Positions 17,952 through 27,434 of a stretch of 64,000 bases of DNA are shown here, piece by piece; position 1 is the first letter of the stretch, and every line of letters starts with the position of its first letter. This DNA comes from Escherichia phage FFH2. The translations under genes were made by a program, and so were the position numbers. The stretch lies in sequence record KJ190158, one strand, 5' to 3'. The notes beneath the pieces are model-generated. The model did not search any database, was not told where the DNA came from, and saw nothing but the letters and a program-made list of their open reading frames with translations.

Positions 17952-18191
17952 ATGTACAAGTCATTCTCAATCTACTCAAGACAGGCGAAACACTACACAG
18001 AGATCCTGATCACTCAGAAAAAGTCTGTAGAAGGTGAGTGGGAGTATCACCATAAAATGTTGCGTCCAGATTGGGTTTTTGATAGACTTATTGCTATGAT
18101 CCCTCTTGGAGAAGTATACCCTCTGACAGGTCATAGGGATGCTTGGGATTTAATTGATTACATAGATTCATTTAAGGAGCCCAGTGTATGA
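17952..18191 (+). CDS. hypothetical protein
   Basis: ATG 17952 is preceded by AAGAGGGGG. Confidence 0.5.
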   Translation: MYKSFSIYSRQAKHYTEILITQKKSVEGEWEYHHKMLRPDWVFDRLIAMIPLGEVYPLTGHRDAWDLIDYIDSFKEPSV

Positions 18192-18586
18192 AGATTGAGA
18201 TCACTAAAGAAGGTAAGAAAGTGTCTGGAGACTATGCAACAGTAATTCGAGATTTAATGTTTGAAACCACCAAGTTCGGCACATCTAAAGTTGGTCAAAC
18301 TGTTAGTGTGCAAGGCAATATCACCACAGGGGAGAAGATAATCATCGTGATCAAAGGACAAGATCCTGTGGAAGGAACAGTGGGCCGAGGAGGCTACCTG
18401 TGCATTTCTGAAGAACCGCGCATGCTGGTTGCTGATAACTCCACAGGTAAAAAGCGGGTATGTAACACGGACGAGGTGATGATTATCTATCCAGTCAATC
18501 CAGATGATCCGGCAACATGGATTGTGGGAAATGAAATCTTCTCTTTAGAAGAGTTATCCTTTCCAGCTCCGCGCTCTGTTCAGTAA
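18188..18586 (+). CDS. hypothetical protein
   Basis: 132-aa ORF whose start overlaps the upstream stop (ATGA). Confidence 0.55.
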   Translation: MKIEITKEGKKVSGDYATVIRDLMFETTKFGTSKVGQTVSVQGNITTGEKIIIVIKGQDPVEGTVGRGGYLCISEEPRMLVADNSTGKKRVCNTDEVMIIYPVNPDDPATWIVGNEIFSLEELSFPAPRSVQ

Positions 18587-18625
18587 TAATTTATCTTACC
18601 AGGGACGGTAGAAGTAGGAGGTAGC

Positions 18626-18859
18626 ATGAAAGTTAAATTTCTTACAGATTTAGGGTACCCTTCCTTGGTTGACTGCATTGGTAAAATTGTGGAAGCAAAA
18701 CGGCTATCTGCAAACGATAATGTTGTCATGGTTAAGGGAAAAGATTTATTAGCTGCAGGTGCAGAGTCTGGCAGGATCTCTCCTGACTATACATATTACT
18801 TATCTTTAAGTAATCTACCAGAACGAGGCGGCAAAGGCCTTGAAGTTGTGGAGGAGTGA
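18626..18859 (+). CDS. small paralogue family A member (MKVKxL...VEVVEE)
   Basis: MKVKFLTD...KGKDLLAAGAE...LEVVEE. It shares its N-terminal, central G-x-D-L-x-AAGA and C-terminal motifs with 22289-22513 and 22503-22757. Confidence 0.65.
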   Translation: MKVKFLTDLGYPSLVDCIGKIVEAKRLSANDNVVMVKGKDLLAAGAESGRISPDYTYYLSLSNLPERGGKGLEVVEE

Positions 18860-18864
18860 CAGGT

Positions 18865-19401
18865 ATGCTTCTGATTAACTGGGAAGACCTCTATGGGGAC
18901 AAAGACCCTGTTGCGTTTGTTGATCGTAGATGGAGATACACTGAAGAACAACTGGCTGCAAAAAATTTAACTGCGAAACGCAGAAAGATCATCCAGTGCA
19001 AGTACAAATACGCACAATTTGCTGCAAAAGTGTCTCCACAAATCGAGAGTTTTGTACTTAAATTGTATGACGAATACCTCAAGTTCAAATTGGATTTTGT
19101 ACAGGTGTACCGTGCACAGGTACGCCCAGATACCAACATATGTAGATGGAAGGTTGTTTGTGACGGTAAAGATTTGCCGCTCAGCTTGACAATTGAGTGG
19201 CGTTATGGGTATCATGAGTGTGGTCTGTATGATACTTGGGATGTCATTGTAGATCCTGCTAAGTACCTGAACACAGAGGAGCTGGAATATATCAATAAGG
19301 TTATTCTCGATATGTTTTTCAGATACACCCGTGAAAACTCTGAGAAAGAACGGGATGATTTTCTTGACACCATCAGCAACCATCTGCAGTATACAATTTA
19401 A
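18865..19401 (+). CDS. hypothetical protein
   Basis: ATG 18865 is preceded by GGAGGAG. Confidence 0.55.
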   Translation: MLLINWEDLYGDKDPVAFVDRRWRYTEEQLAAKNLTAKRRKIIQCKYKYAQFAAKVSPQIESFVLKLYDEYLKFKLDFVQVYRAQVRPDTNICRWKVVCDGKDLPLSLTIEWRYGYHECGLYDTWDVIVDPAKYLNTEELEYINKVILDMFFRYTRENSEKERDDFLDTISNHLQYTI

Positions 19402-19419
19402 CCTACAAAGGGAGGGCTA

Positions 19420-19644
19420 ATGAGTATAAATGTTGTGCTAATAGGCTACCTGGTAATAGCCGTTATAACAGCGGTATTCTTGACAGGTATATGCATCGTG
19501 TCTAGACGAAAGGTGAAGTTTGATGATTTTATCACCATCATCACTGCTGCACCTTTTTGGCCTATTGTTATCTTCATCGTAATAATGTGCCTAGTTGATT
19601 ACTACAAGAATATTCGTAAGGAGAAAAAGGAGAGTAGGGATTGA
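19420..19644 (+). CDS. small membrane protein (2 predicted TM helices)
   Basis: Two hydrophobic stretches (VVLIGYLVIAVITAVFLTGICIV and ITAAPFWPIVIFIVIMCLV). GGGAGGG SD. Confidence 0.6.
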   Translation: MSINVVLIGYLVIAVITAVFLTGICIVSRRKVKFDDFITIITAAPFWPIVIFIVIMCLVDYYKNIRKEKKESRD

Positions 19645-19875
19645 GACCGCACCTAAAACTGTTTATACTGTTCTTAAAGAGATTGCGTTCTACGCAGATC
19701 TTAGCCAGGCACCTTTATGGGAAAAGAGCATGTATTTAAAATGGTGCGTTAATTTAGGGAGACCTTCCAGTGTTTCAAGCCATGTTTATTGAGATGCTAT
19801 CTGGGGTATTGTTACTGGTAGCCATCTTAGGTGGTGCAGTTCTGATGTATAACTATCTTGAAAAAGGAGACAGCA

Positions 19876-20061
19876 ATGGCAAAAAATAAATCTTTAGAGC
19901 AGGCTGAAAACCTTCTCCACGAGCTGGTAAAGGAGTGGAAAGTTGAATACTCAGATTTTAATGCACGAGAGGGTGAAGATTATTGGCCTACGGAGCGCTC
20001 AGAGGGCGAATGGTATCAAGATTTTATAGAGTGGTTATATCAGACGTGCGATGAGGGGTGA
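19876..20061 (+). CDS. hypothetical acidic protein
   Basis: ATG 19876 is preceded by AAAGGAGA. Confidence 0.5.
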   Translation: MAKNKSLEQAENLLHELVKEWKVEYSDFNAREGEDYWPTERSEGEWYQDFIEWLYQTCDEG

Positions 20062-20063
20062 CG

Positions 20064-20519
20064 ATGTTTGTTAAATATGTAAAAACGTGCCTCAACAGTC
20101 TTGGCAGAGAGCATTGGTACACCTTACTTGAAAAAGGAGAAATTTTAACAAAATCTGGAAAGATAACTTTGATACCCTTGGACGATAAAGACCCGTCACT
20201 CCTTGTCATAGATGATTACGTTACAGGTGTGTCGTACGAGGTCTCTGTGGAGAGGTTAATACGCAGAGCTGGCGGCCCTTGTGATCAAAGAGAGTATGTT
20301 TTCGATTCCGTTACAGAGAGGGATCATCCGTCTTTAATGTTCAGGATGGTAATCAGGGATATGAGGTCATCTATAGATAGGATCGTAAAGGACATTAAGG
20401 AACCTTTTAGGGTAAAAGTTAAGAAGTTTTTTGATTCTAAGATTAACATACTTGCTGTTGTGCTAGGCGTAATTCAACTTCTGTTAATTTTGCACTATTT
20501 TGAACTGTTGTTTAAGTAG
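20064..20519 (+). CDS. hypothetical protein with C-terminal TM helix
   Basis: ATG 20064 is preceded by GAGGGG. The C terminus is hydrophobic (ILAVVLGVIQLLLILHYF). Confidence 0.55.
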   Translation: MFVKYVKTCLNSLGREHWYTLLEKGEILTKSGKITLIPLDDKDPSLLVIDDYVTGVSYEVSVERLIRRAGGPCDQREYVFDSVTERDHPSLMFRMVIRDMRSSIDRIVKDIKEPFRVKVKKFFDSKINILAVVLGVIQLLLILHYFELLFK

Positions 20520-20579
20520 TGTGCAACAAGGCACAAAGGATGTGCCATAATTAAACAAATTAAGAAAGAGGTAGAGAGA

Positions 20580-20927
20580 ATGTCAAAGATTAAATCGATA
20601 TTAATGTGGGTAGCTGTTGTGGCTTTTGTAGGATACTGGACTTGGGAAACTGAATTAAAAGATATCGGATATACCAGTCTTGAGAGCAAGGCATGCATTG
20701 GCATAACCGATGCATTCAGGCAAAATGCTATGGATCACGAATGTGTCGATGCAGATATAGATGAGAAACTGTCTAAGGACAAGGATTTTTACCATGGTCA
20801 TGCCTTGCTTGATAGTGGTGACACTGTAGAATTCTGGTCGTGGTTCCGTGAAGATGGAACAATAAAGACAGCAGTAAAGATTTCCAACAAAGAGTTAATG
20901 CTGTTGCAGCAGAAGGAGGTGCAATGA
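20580..20927 (+). CDS. hypothetical protein with N-terminal signal-anchor
   Basis: The N-terminal ILMWVAVVAFVGYW is hydrophobic. AGAGGTAGAGAG SD. Confidence 0.55.
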   Translation: MSKIKSILMWVAVVAFVGYWTWETELKDIGYTSLESKACIGITDAFRQNAMDHECVDADIDEKLSKDKDFYHGHALLDSGDTVEFWSWFREDGTIKTAVKISNKELMLLQQKEVQ

Positions 20928-21211
20928 TTTGGATATCCTACACTGATGGCACCATGCTGTATACTGCAGGTACTAGGTATGAAGTTCAGGAGGACGATAA
21001 AAAATTTATCGTAAAAACATTTGACAAGGACGACAACCTTTTGTTAGAATTGACTTACAAGGTTGGGGAGGTATCTAGCATCCAATTGGATTGCGGTCAT
21101 AAAGATAACCCGCTCAAGAAACCTGGGGTAGGTAAAGCTTCAGAAGAACGCCTGTCTCGTATTGCAGAAAGCGTTTCTGCACAAAAATCTAAGAAGAGGA
21201 TTAGAAAATGA
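20924..21211 (+). CDS. hypothetical protein
   Basis: The start overlaps the upstream stop. GGAGG SD. Confidence 0.55.
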   Translation: MIWISYTDGTMLYTAGTRYEVQEDDKKFIVKTFDKDDNLLLELTYKVGEVSSIQLDCGHKDNPLKKPGVGKASEERLSRIAESVSAQKSKKRIRK

Positions 21212-21408
21212 GTGACAAAATTCTTAAATTTAATACCTACTATGAGAATGATTTGAACGATCTGTATTATATAGTGCGTAGCGAAAACCCAAATGTAGTA
21301 CTGTTTTGCCGAGAACCTTTCAAAAAAGAGGAGATTGAATCTACCATGGATGTGGATCAGATTTCACACCTGCTGCTCCTTGGATCATTAAAAGAGGCAG
21401 TATTCTAA
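21208..21408 (+). CDS. hypothetical protein
   Basis: The start overlaps the upstream stop (ATGA). Confidence 0.5.
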   Translation: MSDKILKFNTYYENDLNDLYYIVRSENPNVVLFCREPFKKEEIESTMDVDQISHLLLLGSLKEAVF

Positions 21409-21427
21409 ACCAGGATGGAGGGTTTTT

Positions 21428-21613
21428 ATGAAGCACTATTGTCTGTCTGGTAGAATGGGTGCAGATTGTGATTGGGTTTTCTTAAAACTTGTCAGCATTC
21501 GAGAGTCCATTTCAGAGGAAGAGCAAGAAAGTGAGCTAATGTCCTGGATCAACCATTACGGTAACACTTTTCGGCATGTTAAGGTAGAAGAGTTGCCAAG
21601 TGAGGCTGATTGA
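21428..21613 (+). CDS. hypothetical protein
   Basis: 61-aa ORF with a GGATGGAGGG SD. Confidence 0.5.
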   Translation: MKHYCLSGRMGADCDWVFLKLVSIRESISEEEQESELMSWINHYGNTFRHVKVEELPSEAD

Positions 21614-21615
21614 CT

Positions 21616-21705
21616 ATGATTGCATCAATATTAACGTTTATGGGTGGCGTGGCATTCGGATTCATTGTTTGCCTGTTTATAGTGATTATGTCTATGCGAG
21701 GCTGA
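21616..21705 (+). CDS. hydrophobic micro-protein (29 aa)
   Basis: MIASILTFMGGVAFGFIVCLFIVIMSMRG exactly fills the gap between neighbours. Below the ORF-track cutoff. Confidence 0.4.
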   Translation: MIASILTFMGGVAFGFIVCLFIVIMSMRG

Positions 21706-21708
21706 ATT

Positions 21709-22005
21709 ATGAAACTTTTTGAGTGGTTTAAAAAGTTTAAATATAAAGCTGTAGCCATCGTGCCGTGGTCCATTCAGTGGGTTGATGAAGGTGGTCTACC
21801 AATACCTGGTGACAAAGATACTGGGTACTGGATTATGATGGAGAACGGGTTTGGAAAGCGAAAGTATACGTGCACAAACTCTACTCGATCTGCGCTTAAT
21901 AGAGTGCCTGGTTACAAACTTATGGTTGTGTGGAAAATGTCAGGCGTGCCTCCAGCTAATGCTCAATTTCTTACTGACAATCCGACCACGGTAGAGGAAG
22001 ATTGA
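21709..22005 (+). CDS. hypothetical protein
   Basis: 98-aa ORF in the co-oriented array. Confidence 0.55.
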   Translation: MKLFEWFKKFKYKAVAIVPWSIQWVDEGGLPIPGDKDTGYWIMMENGFGKRKYTCTNSTRSALNRVPGYKLMVVWKMSGVPPANAQFLTDNPTTVEED

Positions 22006-22007
22006 TA

Positions 22008-22289
22008 ATGAAAAAGATTAACAGTGGTGAAGTTGAGTTTAAACTTGTCGGGAAAGGCACTTACTGGGAAGTTCGTCAAAAGGTATATTTGTTCGGTCTT
22101 ATTCCCTATTGGTCTAAATTCTACTGGGGAGCTAACGAGTGGGGAAGATACGCCACCAAATCAATGGCACTTATTGGTATAGCAGAGTACATTGCAGCCA
22201 GAGATAGGGTTGGAGACACTTATTACTATACTGCGGACGATATTCGTAACAGTGTTTACGTCCCACAACCACCTGATGGAGACCGTTGA
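22008..22289 (+). CDS. hypothetical protein
   Basis: ATG 22008. The stop overlaps the next start. Confidence 0.55.
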   Translation: MKKINSGEVEFKLVGKGTYWEVRQKVYLFGLIPYWSKFYWGANEWGRYATKSMALIGIAEYIAARDRVGDTYYYTADDIRNSVYVPQPPDGDR

Positions 22290-22513
22290 TGAAAGTTAAA
22301 GTTTTAGATTCAAGCTTCTATATTGGTCAGGAGCCTTTAGTAGGAAAAGTGTTTACTGCTGTCCCTAACGAAGATTACCCTGACCTTTTAAAAATAAAAG
22401 GAGCAGATCTTATTGCCGCTGGTGCATCTCAGGAATGCTTTGACAGTCAGTGGACCTACAACTTTGCCCTAGGTGAGGATGTAGAGGTAGTGGAGGACGA
22501 TCATGAAGGTTAA
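22289..22513 (+). CDS. small paralogue family A member
   Basis: MKVKVLDSSFYIGQEPLVGKV...KGADLIAAGAS...GEDVEVVED. Confidence 0.65.
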   Translation: MKVKVLDSSFYIGQEPLVGKVFTAVPNEDYPDLLKIKGADLIAAGASQECFDSQWTYNFALGEDVEVVEDDHEG

Positions 22514-22757
22514 AATTCTTGATTCTAACGTCTACTTGGGACAATCCTTCCTGAATGGAAAGGTCGTTCCTGCGGTATACTTTGAAGGGTTGCCGTGGGA
22601 TGATCCTGTGCGGCAACATCACAGTTATGTAGGCCACAACGTGGTGTTTATCTTGGGATCAGACCTGATCACCGCTGGTGCACCTGAATATTATTTCGGG
22701 GAAGAGTCCTACTATGCCTTTGGGGTAGGGTCAGATGCAGATATTGTAGAGCTGTGA
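22503..22757 (+). CDS. small paralogue family A member
   Basis: MKVKILDSNVYLGQSFLNGKV...GSDLITAGAP...GVGSDADIVEL. Confidence 0.65.
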   Translation: MKVKILDSNVYLGQSFLNGKVVPAVYFEGLPWDDPVRQHHSYVGHNVVFILGSDLITAGAPEYYFGEESYYAFGVGSDADIVEL

Positions 22758-22769
22758 TGGGTAACCGTT

Positions 22770-23168
22770 GTGAAAAATAAACTGTTTAAAGTTACAATGA
22801 AAATTCGCGGGGCTTGGAGCGTAAAGCAAGGGCGTATTCCAGAATTTGAGAAAGACTTCTACGTAGTCTCCACCTCGGAGGAGGCTGCATGCTGGCAGGC
22901 TGGCTATGCCTATGCAAGAACCTGGTACGAAGGGTACCAGACTGGGGGCTATGACGGAGAAATTATCAGCAAGGGTGTAGAAGAAATTAATGTGTTGACA
23001 AGTGAAAAAGTTTTTGTTATAGTGCATCCAGATTCCAGAGTGAAGCATTACTGGAATGCCAGAACAAAAACTTGGACACCGTTTGCAGATTCTGCTACGC
23101 CACTTTTAAACCAGAAAGCTCTTGACTCTGCCCCAAGTTATGGGGTTGTTGAAGAAAAGCTAAACTGA
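22770..23168 (+). CDS. hypothetical protein, paralogue of 24975-25370
   Basis: It shares FV..HP.S....YW......WTP....AT.L with the 131-aa protein at 24975. The start is uncertain (GTG 22770 or ATG 22797). Confidence 0.55.
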   Translation: MKNKLFKVTMKIRGAWSVKQGRIPEFEKDFYVVSTSEEAACWQAGYAYARTWYEGYQTGGYDGEIISKGVEEINVLTSEKVFVIVHPDSRVKHYWNARTKTWTPFADSATPLLNQKALDSAPSYGVVEEKLN

Positions 23169-23185
23169 AACAGTGAGGTGTCACC

Positions 23186-23476
23186 ATGATGGATTTAATT
23201 CTAAATATTGATAACGCAGGAGAGTTTAAAGACGATGGTGTAACAAGCATGGACAAACCCTGCTCTGCTAAGGTTGACTCAAAATGGACCTACAAGTTTG
23301 ACGGAGAGATCTTCGCAAATGATGAGAAGGTTGTAGATGCTGCAGCCATTTTAAACGCTCTAGGGTACGACCCTGTGAATTCTTTGATCAAGGATCCTGT
23401 TGAGTTTGCAGAGTATGTTCGAAAAATGGCAGATCTTGCTGTGGATATTTTAAAAACTATCGACAACAAGCTGTAA
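23186..23476 (+). CDS. hypothetical acidic protein
   Basis: 96-aa ORF with a GTGAGGTG SD. Confidence 0.55.
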   Translation: MMDLILNIDNAGEFKDDGVTSMDKPCSAKVDSKWTYKFDGEIFANDEKVVDAAAILNALGYDPVNSLIKDPVEFAEYVRKMADLAVDILKTIDNKL

Positions 23477-23482
23477 AAACTG

Positions 23483-23511
23483 TTGACACAACGCTTCAGA
23501 TTTAGTATCAT
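23483..23511 (+). promoter_or_regulatory. sigma70-type promoter in front of the HPF-like gene
   Basis: TTGACA-17 nt-TATCAT, followed by an AGAGGG-tttggtt-CCCTCT hairpin (23521-23539) and an AAGGA SD. Confidence 0.65.
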
Positions 23512-23558
23512 TGTTTTCAAAGAGGGTTTGGTTCCCTCTTCTTTAAAAGGAACACGTT

Positions 23559-23876
23559 ATGCAAATTGAAATCACTGGCAACGTAGAAATCACTGAAGGT
23601 ATGGTGTCTTTCATTTCCCACAAAATGTCTAAGCTGGAGCGTTTGCACCCCTCTGCCAACTATGCACGTGTGAGTGTAAAAGTTGAAAATGATCACCAGG
23701 AAGTTATGGCGCTCATTTTTGACAATTCTGGAAAAGAAGTTATTGCCAGGGCTAAAGGTAGTGATGCTTACGAGGCAACTGACCGTATGGTAGATGTTGC
23801 AGCACGTCAGCTGGCTAAATGCGGTGGAAAGAAAGGTAAGGGGAAAGGCAAAGTAAAGATTGACTTTGGAGAATGA
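23559..23876 (+). CDS. hpf: Ribosome hibernation promoting factor / RaiA (S30EA) family protein
   Basis: MQIEITGNVEITEGMVSFISHKMSKLERL...VSVKVEN...GSDAYEATDRMVDVAARQLAK aligns along its length with E. coli HPF (MQLNITGNNVEITEALREFVTAKFAKLEQY...VVLKVEK...GQDMYAAIDGLIDKLARQLTK). It is the short form, with a basic KGKGKGK tail. Confidence 0.8.
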   Translation: MQIEITGNVEITEGMVSFISHKMSKLERLHPSANYARVSVKVENDHQEVMALIFDNSGKEVIARAKGSDAYEATDRMVDVAARQLAKCGGKKGKGKGKVKIDFGE

Positions 23877-23885
23877 GGTGCTACA

Positions 23886-23987
23886 ATGGGCGTGATTAAG
23901 AAACTAGTCCCAAATGTAGAGATTGCATGCTTTGAAATTATGTTTGCAATCGCAGTTGTAGTTAATGTGTTAGGTTACGGCTATTAA
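23886..23987 (+). CDS. hydrophobic micro-protein (33 aa)
   Basis: MGVIKKLVPNVEIACFEIMFAIAVVVNVLGYGY with a GAGGTG SD. Below the ORF-track cutoff. Confidence 0.4.
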   Translation: MGVIKKLVPNVEIACFEIMFAIAVVVNVLGYGY

Positions 23988-24013
23988 TATCAAATAATTG
24001 AGGAGACCTCTAA

Positions 24014-24283
24014 ATGAAAATTAAATTATTCAAAACTGAGCTGGCAGACAAAAACTGTGGACTGGTTGAAGGCATGATTGTCGAAGCACGACCAGTTGAC
24101 TATATGAAGGTGGTTCGTGATGCCCTGGGTGAAGGTTTTGATCTGATGGAGCCAGCTCTGCGAGAAGATGTTATCGAGATGGCTAAAAAGCACACACCTG
24201 AAGGAATGGTGGTGTTTGTTGCACCAGGTAACGGAGAAGAGTTGATTGTAACTCCGGATGTGTATGAGATTGTAGAGGAATAA
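24014..24283 (+). CDS. small paralogue family A-related protein
   Basis: MKIKLFKTE...VVFVAPGNGEELIVTPDVYEIVEE. GAGGAGA SD. Confidence 0.6.
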   Translation: MKIKLFKTELADKNCGLVEGMIVEARPVDYMKVVRDALGEGFDLMEPALREDVIEMAKKHTPEGMVVFVAPGNGEELIVTPDVYEIVEE

Positions 24284-24374
24284 TCCTGCTTGGATTAGCA
24301 TACTTCCTCGACAAGGAAGGTTTGTAATTATTTGTGGGAAAGGAATCCCAATCTCTTACCATAGGTGATACTAT

Positions 24375-24638
24375 ATGATTGTTTATTTTAAAACTTCAGG
24401 TGGATACCCTGATTCTCAAAGCTTGATCGGAAAAACGTGCACAGCATACTCACCTCTTGATGAGGAGGTAGGCGATATTCTACGAAATATGTATCGGATT
24501 GATCCCCAAGAAGCCTTTGATCAAAACCTTGTATTTGTCAAGGGCTCAGACATGAAGTCTTTGGGAGCATTCCCTGAAGCAGATGATGATGCCGTTTATT
24601 CGTTCATGACCCCTTTTGAAGCTATGGTTGTCGGGTGA
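24375..24638 (+). CDS. small paralogue family A member
   Basis: ...SLIGKTCTAY...LVFVKGSDMKSLGAFPE... Confidence 0.6.
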   Translation: MIVYFKTSGGYPDSQSLIGKTCTAYSPLDEEVGDILRNMYRIDPQEAFDQNLVFVKGSDMKSLGAFPEADDDAVYSFMTPFEAMVVG

Positions 24639-24642
24639 TAAT

Positions 24643-24975
24643 ATGAAAGTACGCTTTATTGGTGAAACAATTCCTGTGCATCTCCGGTCGCCTGAAGATT
24701 CTGCAGATCTTGCATCTCAGAAGGCGAGAGGTTATGATAAGAAAGTAATCTCAACCGATGTAGAACTTGAGGCTACTAGTCTACCTGACCCTGCTGCATT
24801 CTTTAATCATTATGGATACTATTTCAGCAATCTGATGAATATCGGTGAGCTTGTGTTTATTAGTGGTGGAGAAATTGTTAGCAAGCTTGGCGGCGATCCG
24901 GATGTCTTTCATGAAACCTGTCCTTTTGCATTTGTGGTAGGTTCAGATGTGGAAGTTATTGAGGAGGTGCGGTAA
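24643..24975 (+). CDS. small paralogue family A member
   Basis: MKVRFIGE...LVFISGGEIVSKLGGDP...FVVGSDVEVIEEVR. The start is set at ATG 24643, after the upstream stop. Confidence 0.6.
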   Translation: MKVRFIGETIPVHLRSPEDSADLASQKARGYDKKVISTDVELEATSLPDPAAFFNHYGYYFSNLMNIGELVFISGGEIVSKLGGDPDVFHETCPFAFVVGSDVEVIEEVR

Positions 24976-25370
24976 TGGTAAGCCTATACCGTGTTGAGTA
25001 TAGCTCAGATACTGTGTACAACGTAAGAAGCAAAGATCGCAGCGACAGAGTGCAAGAAATGTATGTTCTTGCCGACAGTCCGTTATCTGCAGCGTTCAAG
25101 GCAGGGGCTCTTGCATCTCGTTGGAAATTTGAAGGCGGATCTTTCTATGAAGAAACCCTTGAAGATTCTGTTGTTATTTCTTCTGTAGAGGTTTCAGATG
25201 ACTACGAAGGGAAAAAGTTCGTAATGCGGCACCCACACAGCAACATTGCGTACTACTGGGATGTTCTGAACAACGAGTGGACCCCAGATCTTCAGAAGGC
25301 TACTGTGCTAACACCGTTTTTGGCAGATAAGTTCCCACCAGAAGGTAATTTATCCGCACTGTTTCAGTAA
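24975..25370 (+). CDS. hypothetical protein, paralogue of 22770-23168
   Basis: FVMRHPHSNIAYYWDVLNNEWTPDLQKATVLTP compares with FVIVHPDSRVKHYWNARTKTWTPFADSATPLLN. Confidence 0.6.
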   Translation: MVSLYRVEYSSDTVYNVRSKDRSDRVQEMYVLADSPLSAAFKAGALASRWKFEGGSFYEETLEDSVVISSVEVSDDYEGKKFVMRHPHSNIAYYWDVLNNEWTPDLQKATVLTPFLADKFPPEGNLSALFQ

Positions 25371-25378
25371 TTTTCTTG

Positions 25379-25417
25379 CACACAGGTGTTGACAACACCA
25401 ACCCTGTGTGAAATAAT
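25379..25417 (+). promoter_or_regulatory. sigma70-like promoter with its -35 box inside an 8-bp inverted repeat
   Basis: CACACAGG-tgTTGACAacaccaac-CCTGTGTG, then AATAAT 17 nt after the -35 box. Confidence 0.5.
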
Positions 25418-25449
25418 ACCTTCATCTTAACAAGACGGGAGACTGATTG

Positions 25450-25707
25450 ATGAAGATTAAACTGAAAAACCTTGAAATGGCAGAGATTCAGGATGGTGTT
25501 GATTTCCGCTCTAAAGATGGTGACATCTTAGAGGTAAATCTTCCAACCTACGAGCTGATTAAAGGTTTTGGCAACGTTCAGGAAGAGGATATTCCAGAAA
25601 TTCTTATGATGTTGATTCTTGACGGAACTGTGTTTGTAGGTGAAGGTGAGAACGCTATTGCAATCCCAGGCCATTTTTATGAAGTAGTTGACGAAGAGGT
25701 GCTGTAA
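25450..25707 (+). CDS. small paralogue family A-related protein
   Basis: MKIKLKNLE...TVFVGEGENAIAIPGHFYEVVDEEVL. Confidence 0.6.
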   Translation: MKIKLKNLEMAEIQDGVDFRSKDGDILEVNLPTYELIKGFGNVQEEDIPEILMMLILDGTVFVGEGENAIAIPGHFYEVVDEEVL

Positions 25708-26058
25708 ATGAAAGTAGAAATTACCGGTTTTGATGTGAATGTGGTTCCGGAAGATATTTTAGCTAAACTTCCAGAAGGTTTTGGTAACGGCGTTGTGGTG
25801 GATGCTGTTCCTCCTACCAAAGACATTCTGCTGCAGTATGGTGTAGCAGAGGAAGATGTCGATAAAGTTCTTACAATGATGGCAATCGATCGTGTTGTCG
25901 TTGTTAAAGGTCTCGATAATTTTGAGAGTGATCCACTGATTATTCGTGGAGATGACTACAAAATCATCGATAATGAAGGCCAAGAGTTCTATGAGCCTTG
26001 TGCAGAAGATATTCTTAACTTATTACTGGAAGCAGGCACCGAAGAGGAGGACGAATAA
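25708..26058 (+). CDS. small paralogue family A-related protein
   Basis: MKVEITGFD...VVVVKGLDNFESDPLIIRGDDYKIIDNE... Confidence 0.6.
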   Translation: MKVEITGFDVNVVPEDILAKLPEGFGNGVVVDAVPPTKDILLQYGVAEEDVDKVLTMMAIDRVVVVKGLDNFESDPLIIRGDDYKIIDNEGQEFYEPCAEDILNLLLEAGTEEEDE

Positions 26059-26387
26059 TGAAGATTGACCCGTTACTGAAGGCTCGTGCAGAAAAAGCGT
26101 ACACCATTAAGTTGACCAACTTGGTTCCTACTTGTCATCCGGATGTAGGTTGGCCCGAAGGTTTGGTGGAGGGAACTGTAACAGCTGCATACCTTCCTAA
26201 CATCAAATACCTCATGGAAATCTTGGAGCTGGATGAGGAAACGGCAGAAGAGTTCCAGTTGGACATGAAACAAAGTGGGACTCTGGTTATTCACGGGTGG
26301 TATAATACTAAAGATGCAGAAGACCCTCTGGTAACTTCTAATCTGGCATATGAAATCTTAGGGCCTTTGAACCTGGAGGAAGACTAA
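26058..26387 (+). CDS. small paralogue family A-related protein
   Basis: ...TLVIHGWYNTKDAEDPLVTSNLAYEILGP... The start overlaps the upstream stop. Confidence 0.55.
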   Translation: MKIDPLLKARAEKAYTIKLTNLVPTCHPDVGWPEGLVEGTVTAAYLPNIKYLMEILELDEETAEEFQLDMKQSGTLVIHGWYNTKDAEDPLVTSNLAYEILGPLNLEED

Positions 26388-26674
26388 TGAAAGATCTGGT
26401 TAAGATTAAGATTAAAGATACCAATGGAGAACTCAGTCATTTTGGAATTAATGATGGTGACGAGCTGATCGCACACCTGCCTACCAAGGAGGTTGTAAGC
26501 AAAGCAGTTGCCGGAGAAGAAGCTGCAATGCAGGCTGCAGGTGTGGATGAAAACTATGTAGCTATGTGCATGTGCCGAGATCAGGTTGTTCTGTATAAAG
26601 CGTATCGACCAAACGGAGCCACGGAGTGGCTTGTATTCCGACCCGAAGGATATGAAATCTTAGAGGCACTATGA
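26387..26674 (+). CDS. small paralogue family A-related protein
   Basis: MKDLVKIKIKD...VVLYKAYRPNGATEWLVFRPEGYEILEAL. Confidence 0.55.
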   Translation: MKDLVKIKIKDTNGELSHFGINDGDELIAHLPTKEVVSKAVAGEEAAMQAAGVDENYVAMCMCRDQVVLYKAYRPNGATEWLVFRPEGYEILEAL

Positions 26675-26754
26675 TAAATCTTGCCAAGGTTGCAACGGCA
26701 CTGTTAATTATTTGCTGGTCAGTAACCTTAACACTGTGTCTTGTATTTCAGTGA
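26671..26754 (+). CDS. hydrophobic micro-protein (27 aa)
   Basis: MINLAKVATALLIICWSVTLTLCLVFQ. The start overlaps the upstream stop (ATGA). Below the ORF-track cutoff. Confidence 0.35.
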   Translation: MINLAKVATALLIICWSVTLTLCLVFQ

Positions 26755-26763
26755 GGTGCTTGT

Positions 26764-27027
26764 ATGAACATCCTGATGTGGGTTATAGCAGTGGCGTTTG
26801 TTGCATGTTTTTGCTGCTGGGTTGCGGTGAGGATTTCTGTAGCTACCCTTCGGAAGTTGGGGTTCTCAGAATGGGATATTAATATCCTTTCTTTTCGCAA
26901 TGAAACAATCTCAGCCGCCCTGCTTTGTAAGAAATTTAAGTGGGAACCTTGTGAGGTCATGAGCTATCTAAGAACAGGCGATATCCCTGAAAGATTTAAA
27001 AAAGTTCTTGACGGCAAGGATAAATGA
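26764..27027 (+). CDS. small membrane protein
   Basis: The N-terminal ILMWVIAVAFVACFCCWVAV is hydrophobic. GTGAGGTG SD. Confidence 0.55.
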   Translation: MNILMWVIAVAFVACFCCWVAVRISVATLRKLGFSEWDINILSFRNETISAALLCKKFKWEPCEVMSYLRTGDIPERFKKVLDGKDK

Positions 27028-27055: not shown

Positions 27056-27196
27056 GTGACTGATTTTACTGAAGCTTTAATGATGGCCTTGTCTGTTTTA
27101 GCGCTATCGGTGTGTTTTGGGGCGTTATTCACATCTCTGGTTAAAGTTTTACATACAGTATTATTACCCAAGGAGCGCAGTAATGACGAAGATTGA
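27056..27196 (+). CDS. hydrophobic micro-protein (~46 aa, GTG start)
   Basis: GAGGTGAGGG sits upstream of the GTG. ALMMALSVLALSVCFGALFTSLV is a TM-like segment. The ORF overlaps the next start. Confidence 0.3.
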   Translation: MTDFTEALMMALSVLALSVCFGALFTSLVKVLHTVLLPKERSNDED

Positions 27197-27434
27197 CTTG
27201 AATGCTGGTGATCATGTTGTTGTCAAATGCATTGGAGATTATCTTGGATTCACAATCGGCAATACTTACGAGGCGGTAGTGGCGAAGGTTTATCATGATA
27301 AAGTCCTCAGTCTTGTATTTGACTGTGATGATGACGGAGATGACCGTTACGTCTGTGAGGTGCTGGCTCGTGACGATAGTGAAGACCAGAAATTCCTGGT
27401 TATTGAACTGAACGGTATTTTTGTAGAACGTTAA
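27183..27434 (+). CDS. hypothetical protein
   Basis: ATG 27183 is preceded by AAGGAG. The longer ORF from 27117 lacks an SD. Confidence 0.55.
   Translation: MTKIDLNAGDHVVVKCIGDYLGFTIGNTYEAVVAKVYHDKVLSLVFDCDDDGDDRYVCEVLARDDSEDQKFLVIELNGIFVER

Follow-up and report, generated by a model that had tools for sequence, protein, structure and literature searches.

In large lytic phages, a great part of the early gene blocks is given over to small proteins without an assigned function, and the catalogued counterparts of the genes analysed here are of this kind: phrog_5009 and the PHROGs linked to it are entries for which a function or a fold is not described, and the genes themselves already appear under the label hypothetical in the records of more than 100 genomes as well as in PHROGs. 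A phage protein with SH3-like domains for which an activity has been described is Nip of Bacillus phage phi3T, a counter-defence protein containing two such domains that inhibits the SpbK TIR defence (PMC11984713). In the current work, a locus of Escherichia phage FFH2 (sequence record KJ190158) was analysed within a stretch of 64,000 nucleotides, referred to in its entirety as the window, with genes designated by the position of their first nucleotide on this stretch. Inspection of the sequence alone had placed between positions 18,626 and 26,674 a tandem expansion of a single small-protein family with at least ten members. The ten open reading frames (ORFs) were confirmed at their coordinates, all on the + strand, and they are indeed tandem paralogs; by sequence, they fall into two families of five (A and B), the link between which is limited to a shared SH3-like fold class. 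The literature yielded no paper dealing with these proteins, and the paper describing the rV5 genome mentions neither paralogs nor gene families. The two-family split, the SH3-like models, the breadth of family A together with its habit of tandem expansion, and the evidence for age and purifying selection are new.

Kinship among the ten genes

An all-against-all blastp comparison splits the ten genes, the products of which measure 74-116 amino acids (aa), into two groups of five. Family A consists of 18626, 22289, 22503, 24375 and 24643 and carries the motif GxDLxxxGA; family B consists of 24014, 25450, 25708, 26058 and 26387, is devoid of this motif and possesses a helical insert. Hidden Markov models (HMMs) built from four ortholog groups of a family were run against the complete set of 467 window ORFs that reach 40 aa or more, and the omitted fifth member was retrieved at rank 1 of 467 each time, with expect values (E) of 2e-5 to 2e-19 for family A and of 4e-3 to 2e-8 for family B. 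Compositional bias as the source of the similarity is ruled out by these leave-one-out tests, and the within-family similarity is real. Profile-profile comparison by hhalign, performed with ortholog groups enriched with sequences of a divergent lineage, joins family A into a connected web (probabilities of 70-99%) and relates the members of family B to each other over their full length and in colinear fashion (21-86%), the strongest links being those of 25450 to 25708, 25708 to 26058 and 24014 to 26387 (Table 1).

The same partition is apparent from the PHROGs profiles. Full-length matches to phrog_5009 (74 positions) were obtained for 18626 (E=6e-36), 22289 (E=1.7e-38) and 22503 (E=3.7e-32), together with a weak match for 24375 (E=1.2e-4), while 24643 has no direct match and is tied to family A by hhalign, with scores of 95% against 22503 and 86% against 22289 across the last 40 residues. 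No match to phrog_5009 was found for the five B genes, which the A3, A5 and Aall HMMs of family A also miss; 24643 and all five B genes are each placed in a single-genus PHROG of their own, weak cross matches being confined to 25450 and 25708.

The pattern that the sequence-only reading had attributed to all ten proteins held in part. Its terminal motifs are enriched in both families, whereas the central motif, (V/L)(V/F)xxxGxD(L/M)xxxGA, is present in 18626, 22289, 22503 and 24375, is degenerate in 24643, and was not found in 24014, 25450, 25708, 26058 or 26387. In an alignment of 31 sequences that includes all five family A members of the window, Y11, G38, G45, Y57 and F59 (22289 numbering) and the GxDLxxxGA segment are conserved at 90% or above. 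Nine of the ten proteins are strongly acidic, with net charges of -6 to -21 (the lowest value belonging to 25708, which has a very acidic C-terminal tail), the exception being 18626 at -1. Within family A, 24375 has atypical ends (MIVYF at the start and MVVG at the finish) and an insert between strands 2 and 3. Neither the remainder of the window nor bases 1-50000 of rV5 yielded additional members, the scan of rV5 ending before the structural region of that genome at 50-75 kilobases (kb).

Two additional proteins of 132 and 131 aa, encoded by 22770 and 24975 and designated family C, are paralogs, as had been proposed: blastp (E=7.6e-9), hhalign (96.9%) and the assignment of both to phrog_7379 agree on this point. 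By tblastn, family C was found in Vequintavirus only. A relationship between family C and NinX, the gene for which follows the family A homolog in prophages, was considered and rejected (hhalign 0.2%). The gene order A-A-C is present twice, which fits the proposed duplication of a three-gene segment, as do the kinship of the C pair and the fact that 24643 is closest to 22503; however, no DNA-level repeat was found between the two trios, the sole notable direct repeat being one of 30 nucleotides (nt) over the GxDLxxAGA codons of 22289 and 22503. Furthermore, 22289 most resembles the adjacent 22503 (47% over the core), and in a neighbour-joining tree 22289 is joined to 22503 and 24375 to 24643 rather than across the trios, with a bootstrap value of 54% that represents weak support. 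A block duplication with subsequent exchange between neighbours is possible, and a duplication of an A-C pair followed by separate tandem duplications fits equally well. Natural hybrids of 22289 and 22503 were encountered in metagenomic contigs: P0014 and P0017 each consist of the N-terminal half of 22289 and the C-terminal half of 22503, which points to unequal crossing-over between these two genes, and P0026 combines a prophage-type (P0030-like) N-terminal half with the C-terminal half of 22289.

The window represents a Vequintavirus (rV5-like) genome, bases 18000-27000 of which are 96-98% identical at the nucleotide level to PDX, rV5 and approximately 110 other Vequintavirus genomes. The rV5 counterparts of the ten genes, annotated as hypothetical, are ORF127, 140, 141, 146-148 and 150-153, and the rV5 block is located on the + strand downstream of genes for PhoH, a ClpP-like protease and a DNA methyltransferase. 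Families A and B are interleaved within this one gene block, 18626 being separated by 3.4 kb from the other family A genes. Two sigma-70-type promoters annotated in rV5, P144 and P150, are located within the block; the gene for a homolog of the ribosome hibernation factor HPF is the first of the P144 unit, which also contains 24014-24975. Gene packing is tight, with overlapping or abutting junctions (gaps of -11 to 0 nt) at 22289, 22503, 24975, 25708, 26058 and 26387, and the Shine-Dalgarno sequence of the downstream gene (GAGGAGG or GGAGGA) often lies within the Glu-rich final codons of the upstream gene. Translational coupling may thus be a constraint that in part accounts for the acidic ending that the proteins share.

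Table 1. Coordinates of the family A, B and C genes and of associated features in the window
Feature	Position	Strand	rV5 counterpart	Details
Family A, 77 aa	18626..18859	+	ORF127	isolated copy, least acidic; leave-one-out rank 1, E=1.7e-7
Family A, 74 aa	22289..22513	+	ORF140	minimal family core
Family A, 84 aa	22503..22757	+	ORF141	11-nt overlap with 22289; insert between strands 2 and 3; hhalign 99% to 22289
Family C, 132 aa	22770..23168	+	ORF142	phrog_7379 E=4e-74
Sigma-70-type promoter	23483-23511		matches P144	TTGACA-17-TATCAT; annotated upstream of the HPF homolog gene in rV5
HPF/RaiA ribosome hibernation factor homolog	23559..23876	+		Pfam PF02482 E=1.8e-12; not a family member
Family B, 89 aa	24014..24283	+	ORF146	leave-one-out rank 1, E=1.1e-3; phrog_11868; hhalign, full length, 49% to 26387 and 21% to 25450
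Family A, 87 aa	24375..24638	+	ORF147	leave-one-out E=1.9e-5; hhalign 70-84% to 18626, 22289 and 22503
Family A, 110 aa	24643..24975	+	ORF148	long insert; degenerate motif GGEIVSKLGG; leave-one-out E=2e-6
Family C, 131 aa	24975..25370	+	ORF149	phrog_7379 E=2e-66; ortholog in sister-lineage scaffold L017 at 40% identity
Sigma-70-type promoter	25389..25417	+	P150	TTGACA-17-AATAAT, upstream TG; precedes a run of four B genes
Family B, 85 aa	25450..25707	+	ORF150	
Family B, 116 aa	25708..26058	+	ORF151	leave-one-out E=1.6e-8; hhalign 86% to 25450 and 81% to 26058
Family B, 109 aa	26058..26387	+	ORF152	N-terminal extension; leave-one-out rank 1, E=4e-3; hhalign 81% to 25708 and 37% to 26387
Family B, 95 aa	26387..26674	+		leave-one-out E=6e-5; hhalign 49% to 24014

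The ortholog of 26387 is split into ORF153 and ORF154 in the rV5 reference record and is intact in the window, FV3, bov10K2 and Aya; the split is a frameshift or a sequencing error. Between the first trio and promoter P144, a 96-aa gene (23186-23476) encodes DSKWTYKF, which resembles DSQWTYNF of 22289, the underlying 27-nt stretches (23274-23300 and 22440-22466) being 78% identical; this stretch may be what is left of the end of a family A gene, or the match may be due to chance.

Predicted barrels and the possible relationship between families A and B

Structure prediction for representatives, which had been suggested together with Foldseek searches as a check, yielded confident SH3-like barrels for both families. 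The AlphaFold2 model of family A (22289; predicted local distance difference test score, pLDDT, 90.8) has strands at residues 2-5, 21-26, 33-37, 56-61 and 65-69 and a short helix at 38-43, and that of family B (25450; pLDDT 89.8) shares all five strands and has, in addition, a pair of helices separating strand 2 from strand 3. Both are predicted to be five-stranded barrels that superpose on SH3, KOW or PsaE domains, and many of the chains that they match in the PDB are common to the two. At a sequence identity of 10-20% and with no Pfam match to SH3 or KOW, the likeness to such barrels is one of fold class only; features that set the families apart from them are, in family A, a conserved helix-loop (GxDLxxxGA) that follows strand 3 and, in family B, the two helices between strands 2 and 3.

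The family B model also returned a weak Foldseek match (template modelling score, TM, 0.52; probability 0.99) to an 83-aa protein of vequintavirus CM1, of which the gene at 27180-27434 (rV5 ORF157) is, judged by length, a possible ortholog; this gene may encode a further small barrel protein adjoining the array.

These models raise the question as to whether all ten genes represent one ancient superfamily, in which B would be an A-type barrel that acquired two helices between strands 2 and 3 and lost the GxDLxxxGA helix-loop. The extra material of three family A members is placed at the same site as the family B helices, in the form of variable loops. A profile-profile alignment of the two families is colinear over strands 1, 2 and 3 and its score of 20.9 exceeds those of all 120 column shuffles. 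Of 168 coding-strand ORFs, only 4 unite an MK[VI][KRE] start with a hydrophobic-acidic end, all of them members (two from A and two from B), and the barrels matched in common and the interleaving of the genes likewise favour such an origin. However, the check that upheld kinship within each family as real rather than compositional does not extend across the two: the A-B profile comparison reaches an hhalign probability of 8.6%, or 18% with secondary structure, over the N-terminal 28-50 columns only, the individual pairs score 5% or less, and unrelated real ORFs of the window score similarly, which places the A-B link within noise. HMMs of either family, the broad family A profile included, never detect the other, and a Foldseek search of viral structures with the B model as query yielded no protein of family A, from a library whose coverage of that family is not established. 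Moreover, SH3-like barrels are very widespread as a fold. Within the barrel, the first strand is paired with the last, and the final codons of a gene, of the GAGGAG type, also serve the following gene as its Shine-Dalgarno sequence, so that a K-rich first and an E-rich last strand could be convergent barrel partners or could have been shaped by embedded ribosome-binding sites. A deep common origin of A and B is therefore possible, albeit the less favoured of the two interpretations; if true, it would make the single ten-member family right at a deeper level.

Distribution, age and selection

Family A is a local expansion of a widespread family of small phage proteins, and the earlier description of the array as lineage-specific does not hold. 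A word-indexed search of 5.8 billion proteins retrieved mostly vequintavirus orthologs, and it was the exhaustive HMM search of 1.84 billion representatives (E<=1e-3) alone that widened family A, to 40 proteins mostly of 63-87 aa with the consensus MKVKLLxxGGYxGM..VxGKVVxA...IxGxELIxAGA...F...YxF..GxExEVIEE. Some of these are fused, P0101 comprising three domains, and P0106 and P0124 two domains each. The wider family matches PHROGs 5009, 13367, 7345, 15322 and 8603 (all without assigned function and of approximately 70 aa), several of which are matched at once by distant relatives, and no Pfam family. Matches obtained by tblastn include RB49 and GEC-3S (both Krischvirus), PHB17, Henu15 and phi1_175008, and cover a T1-like phage, a Morganella phage and a phi92-like Klebsiella phage. 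RB49 holds at least four adjacent copies (ORF071c, 073c, 074c and 076c; L020 2684-4325) in a block of small hypothetical genes beside dam, and a phi92-like Klebsiella phage holds two (L021 3580-4759), one of which has a 90-aa C-terminal extension. Prophages of E. coli, Morganella and other hosts, lambdoid and P22-like ones among them, carry single copies in accessory positions, either between the genes for the Q antiterminator and the holin, or in the early-left operon between recT or erf-ssb and the genes for NinX, an MT-A70 methylase and the integrase. The isolated copy 18626 clusters with P0030, a prophage homolog, at 86% bootstrap support, and its history may be separate from that of the other A copies. 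Family A is thus spread over T4-like, phi92-like, T1-like and temperate phages and tends to undergo tandem multiplication or fusion.

Family B, by sequence, was found in Vequintavirus and one sister lineage only (by tblastn in Vequintavirus only), with the exception of a Foldseek match to an 86-aa protein of Vibrio phage Vc1 (TM 0.77, 34% identity). Members of A, B or C were not detected in the syntenic regions of PVP-SE1, TH18, KB57 and CR8, which belong to other genera of the Vequintavirinae. Among the vequintavirus sequences, 18 GenBank records (MG0656xx) named 'Campylobacter phage', with Campylobacter jejuni as host, are 95-100% identical here to E. coli vequintaviruses, which points to mislabelled or contaminant sequences.

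The sister lineage is represented by a 128-kb metagenome scaffold of an uncultured phage from the European Nucleotide Archive (L017), for which the 50,697 GenBank phage records contain no close relative. It retains five A and five B genes in the same order as one-to-one orthologs, at 29-74% protein identity to those of the window; it has one copy of C, the ortholog of 24975, without a counterpart of 22770, and in place of promoter P150 it carries a gene resembling P22 Y8K6. Since orthologous pairs between the window and this scaffold are grouped with bootstrap values of 95-100%, all ten copies predate the split of the two lineages. The ratio of nonsynonymous to synonymous substitutions (dN/dS), determined pairwise by the Nei-Gojobori method, is 0.00-0.28 for every member when compared with Aya and FV3, the two most diverged genomes, and the same range applies to neighbouring genes; values for bov10K2 and rV5 are uninformative as very few substitutions separate them from the window. 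In addition, 113 of 120 GenBank records retain at least 80% of the region. The duplications are therefore old, and each copy has since been under purifying selection as a one-to-one ortholog.

This outcome bears on the suggestion that such arrays are subject to diversifying selection and to turnover of copy number, in other words that the locus is a fast-evolving one engaged in an arms race. The hybrid genes P0014, P0017 and P0026, representing recombination between paralogs, a natural deletion in phage Bas59 that takes out three members, and the rV5 record with its split 26387 ortholog would be in keeping with that view. Yet the dN/dS values are not above those of the neighbours, orthology and gene order persist in a strongly diverged lineage, nearly all records keep the region, and the genes nearby that are truly variable are non-members. 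An arms-race locus is accordingly very improbable and largely refuted at the level of whole genes, the array being the opposite of a fast-turnover, diversifying one. The variable non-members, namely 18856 (18865-19401), 19420-19644, 21208-21408 and 21709-22005, show 50-68% protein identity between genomes that are otherwise approximately 95% identical, diverged alleles being, for example, those of FV3 for 18856, 19420 and 21709, and those of Aya, FV3 and bov10K2 for 21208; this suggests allelic replacement.

Candidate roles and comparison with described proteins

On balance, the locus probably represents an early, sigma-70-driven accessory block that holds two five-gene paralog families and a two-member family of approximately 131 aa, and whose products would be non-enzymatic accessory binding proteins. 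This role is suggested by the fold, size and charge of the proteins, by the type of promoter and by the accessory positions in which relatives occur. The proteins would be binding modules made early in infection, each paralog being specialised on a different macromolecule of the host or of a competitor, for host modulation or counter-defence, and they would be conditionally useful rather than essential. Searches of Pfam, NCBIfam, PADLOC and PDB sequences yielded neither an enzyme motif nor a signal peptide nor a known family: Pfam at E<=1 gave nothing for nine members, one irrelevant weak match for the tenth and no KOW (PF00467), PADLOC-DB profiles gave no match at E<=0.1 other than one at chance level for 26058 (E=0.04), and searches of PDB sequences with the A and B profiles found nothing. 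The sequence-only reading had refrained from assigning a function, and rightly so; the roles in host takeover or anti-defence that it had mentioned are plausible candidates.

A natural partial knock-out of the array is available in Bas59 (EduardKellenberger, MZ501061, of the BASEL collection). Its deletion of approximately 3.8 kb corresponds to window positions ~19262-23082 and shows a 15-nt overlap at the junction. Lost are 22289, 22503, most of 22770 and nine further small genes, among them the rV5 'virion structural protein' ORF133; the beginning of the 18856 gene has become joined to the end of 22770, and this fusion is annotated as 'putative glycosidase'. Plating efficiencies of Bas59 are like those of Bas57 and Bas58, and it shows no phenotype on 11 immunity systems. 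As Bas59 grows normally, the 22289, 22503 and 22770 copies are dispensable in the laboratory.

Several considerations count against a role as early accessory binding proteins. Neither experiments nor homologs point to a target or an activity, so that the role is deduced from fold, size, charge and genomic position; early timing is deduced from sigma-70-type promoters and not from transcripts; and the structures are predictions, that of family B being based on an alignment which assumed homology of the five B groups. Stable one-to-one orthology and low dN/dS are less typical of arms-race inhibitors. The lack of a phenotype in Bas59 neither supports nor excludes a role in counter-defence, and vequintaviruses are reported to be exceptionally sensitive to restriction-modification systems (PMC8594841), from which it follows that these proteins do not protect against the systems tested.

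Alternatively, the paralogs could be subunits of one or a few hetero-oligomers, such as Sm- or Hfq-like barrel rings, rather than independent binders. Small barrels of this class often form rings, related proteins occur as single-chain fusions of two or three domains, overlapping and abutting genes with embedded ribosome-binding sites favour coupled translation, and all ten genes have been conserved together as a set over a long divergence. Such an assembly is nevertheless unlikely, considering that temperate phages have a single copy, that Bas59 plates like its siblings without two of the A genes, and that 18626 is located at a distance from the other A genes. It is less likely again that A and B form one ancient superfamily acting as a modular, possibly hetero-oligomeric, multi-target system in which each barrel neutralises a different host factor or defence protein; if true, this would constitute a recurrent toolkit of large lytic phages, which rV5-like phages carry in five plus five copies, RB49 in at least four and phi92-like phages in two, with fused multi-domain forms in uncultured phages. 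Mimicry of a KOW- or NusG-type domain by the family A barrels, acting on the transcription or translation machinery of the host (for example Rho, ribosomal protein S10 or the ribosome), would find a hint in the HPF homolog gene that heads the transcription unit holding 24014-24975. This adjacency is weak evidence in a densely packed phage operon, KOW goes unmatched in Pfam even at the permissive threshold, and the glycine spacing of the conserved A motif differs from that of the KOW motif, which together make KOW mimicry highly unlikely.

The analysis clarifies an ordinary kind of phage feature, and the result does not in itself reveal a new mechanism. Ten genes of a phage group common in therapy and typing are sorted into two families with a confident fold prediction, and these constitute a defined, testable gene set for partner screens and deletions, for which Bas59 offers a starting point.

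Compared with the PHROGs entries that family A members match over their full length, what is added here is the five-copy array and the SH3-like model, neither of which is recorded there. The ORF064c-083c block of RB49 contains the same family A, tandemly expanded in an unrelated lytic phage; the two expansions are, however, separate, the RB49 copies not being orthologs of those of the rV5 type, and RB49 is without family B or C. Nip differs from the proteins of this locus in its length of 279 aa, its HU-like dimerisation domain and its origin in a temperate phage of a Gram-positive host (PMC11984713), the relationship being one of analogy and not of membership. It is likewise phage-encoded, non-enzymatic and predicted to be SH3-like, and it acts by binding a host defence protein (PMC11984713), a precedent from which it follows that the SH3-like fold is used for phage counter-defence.

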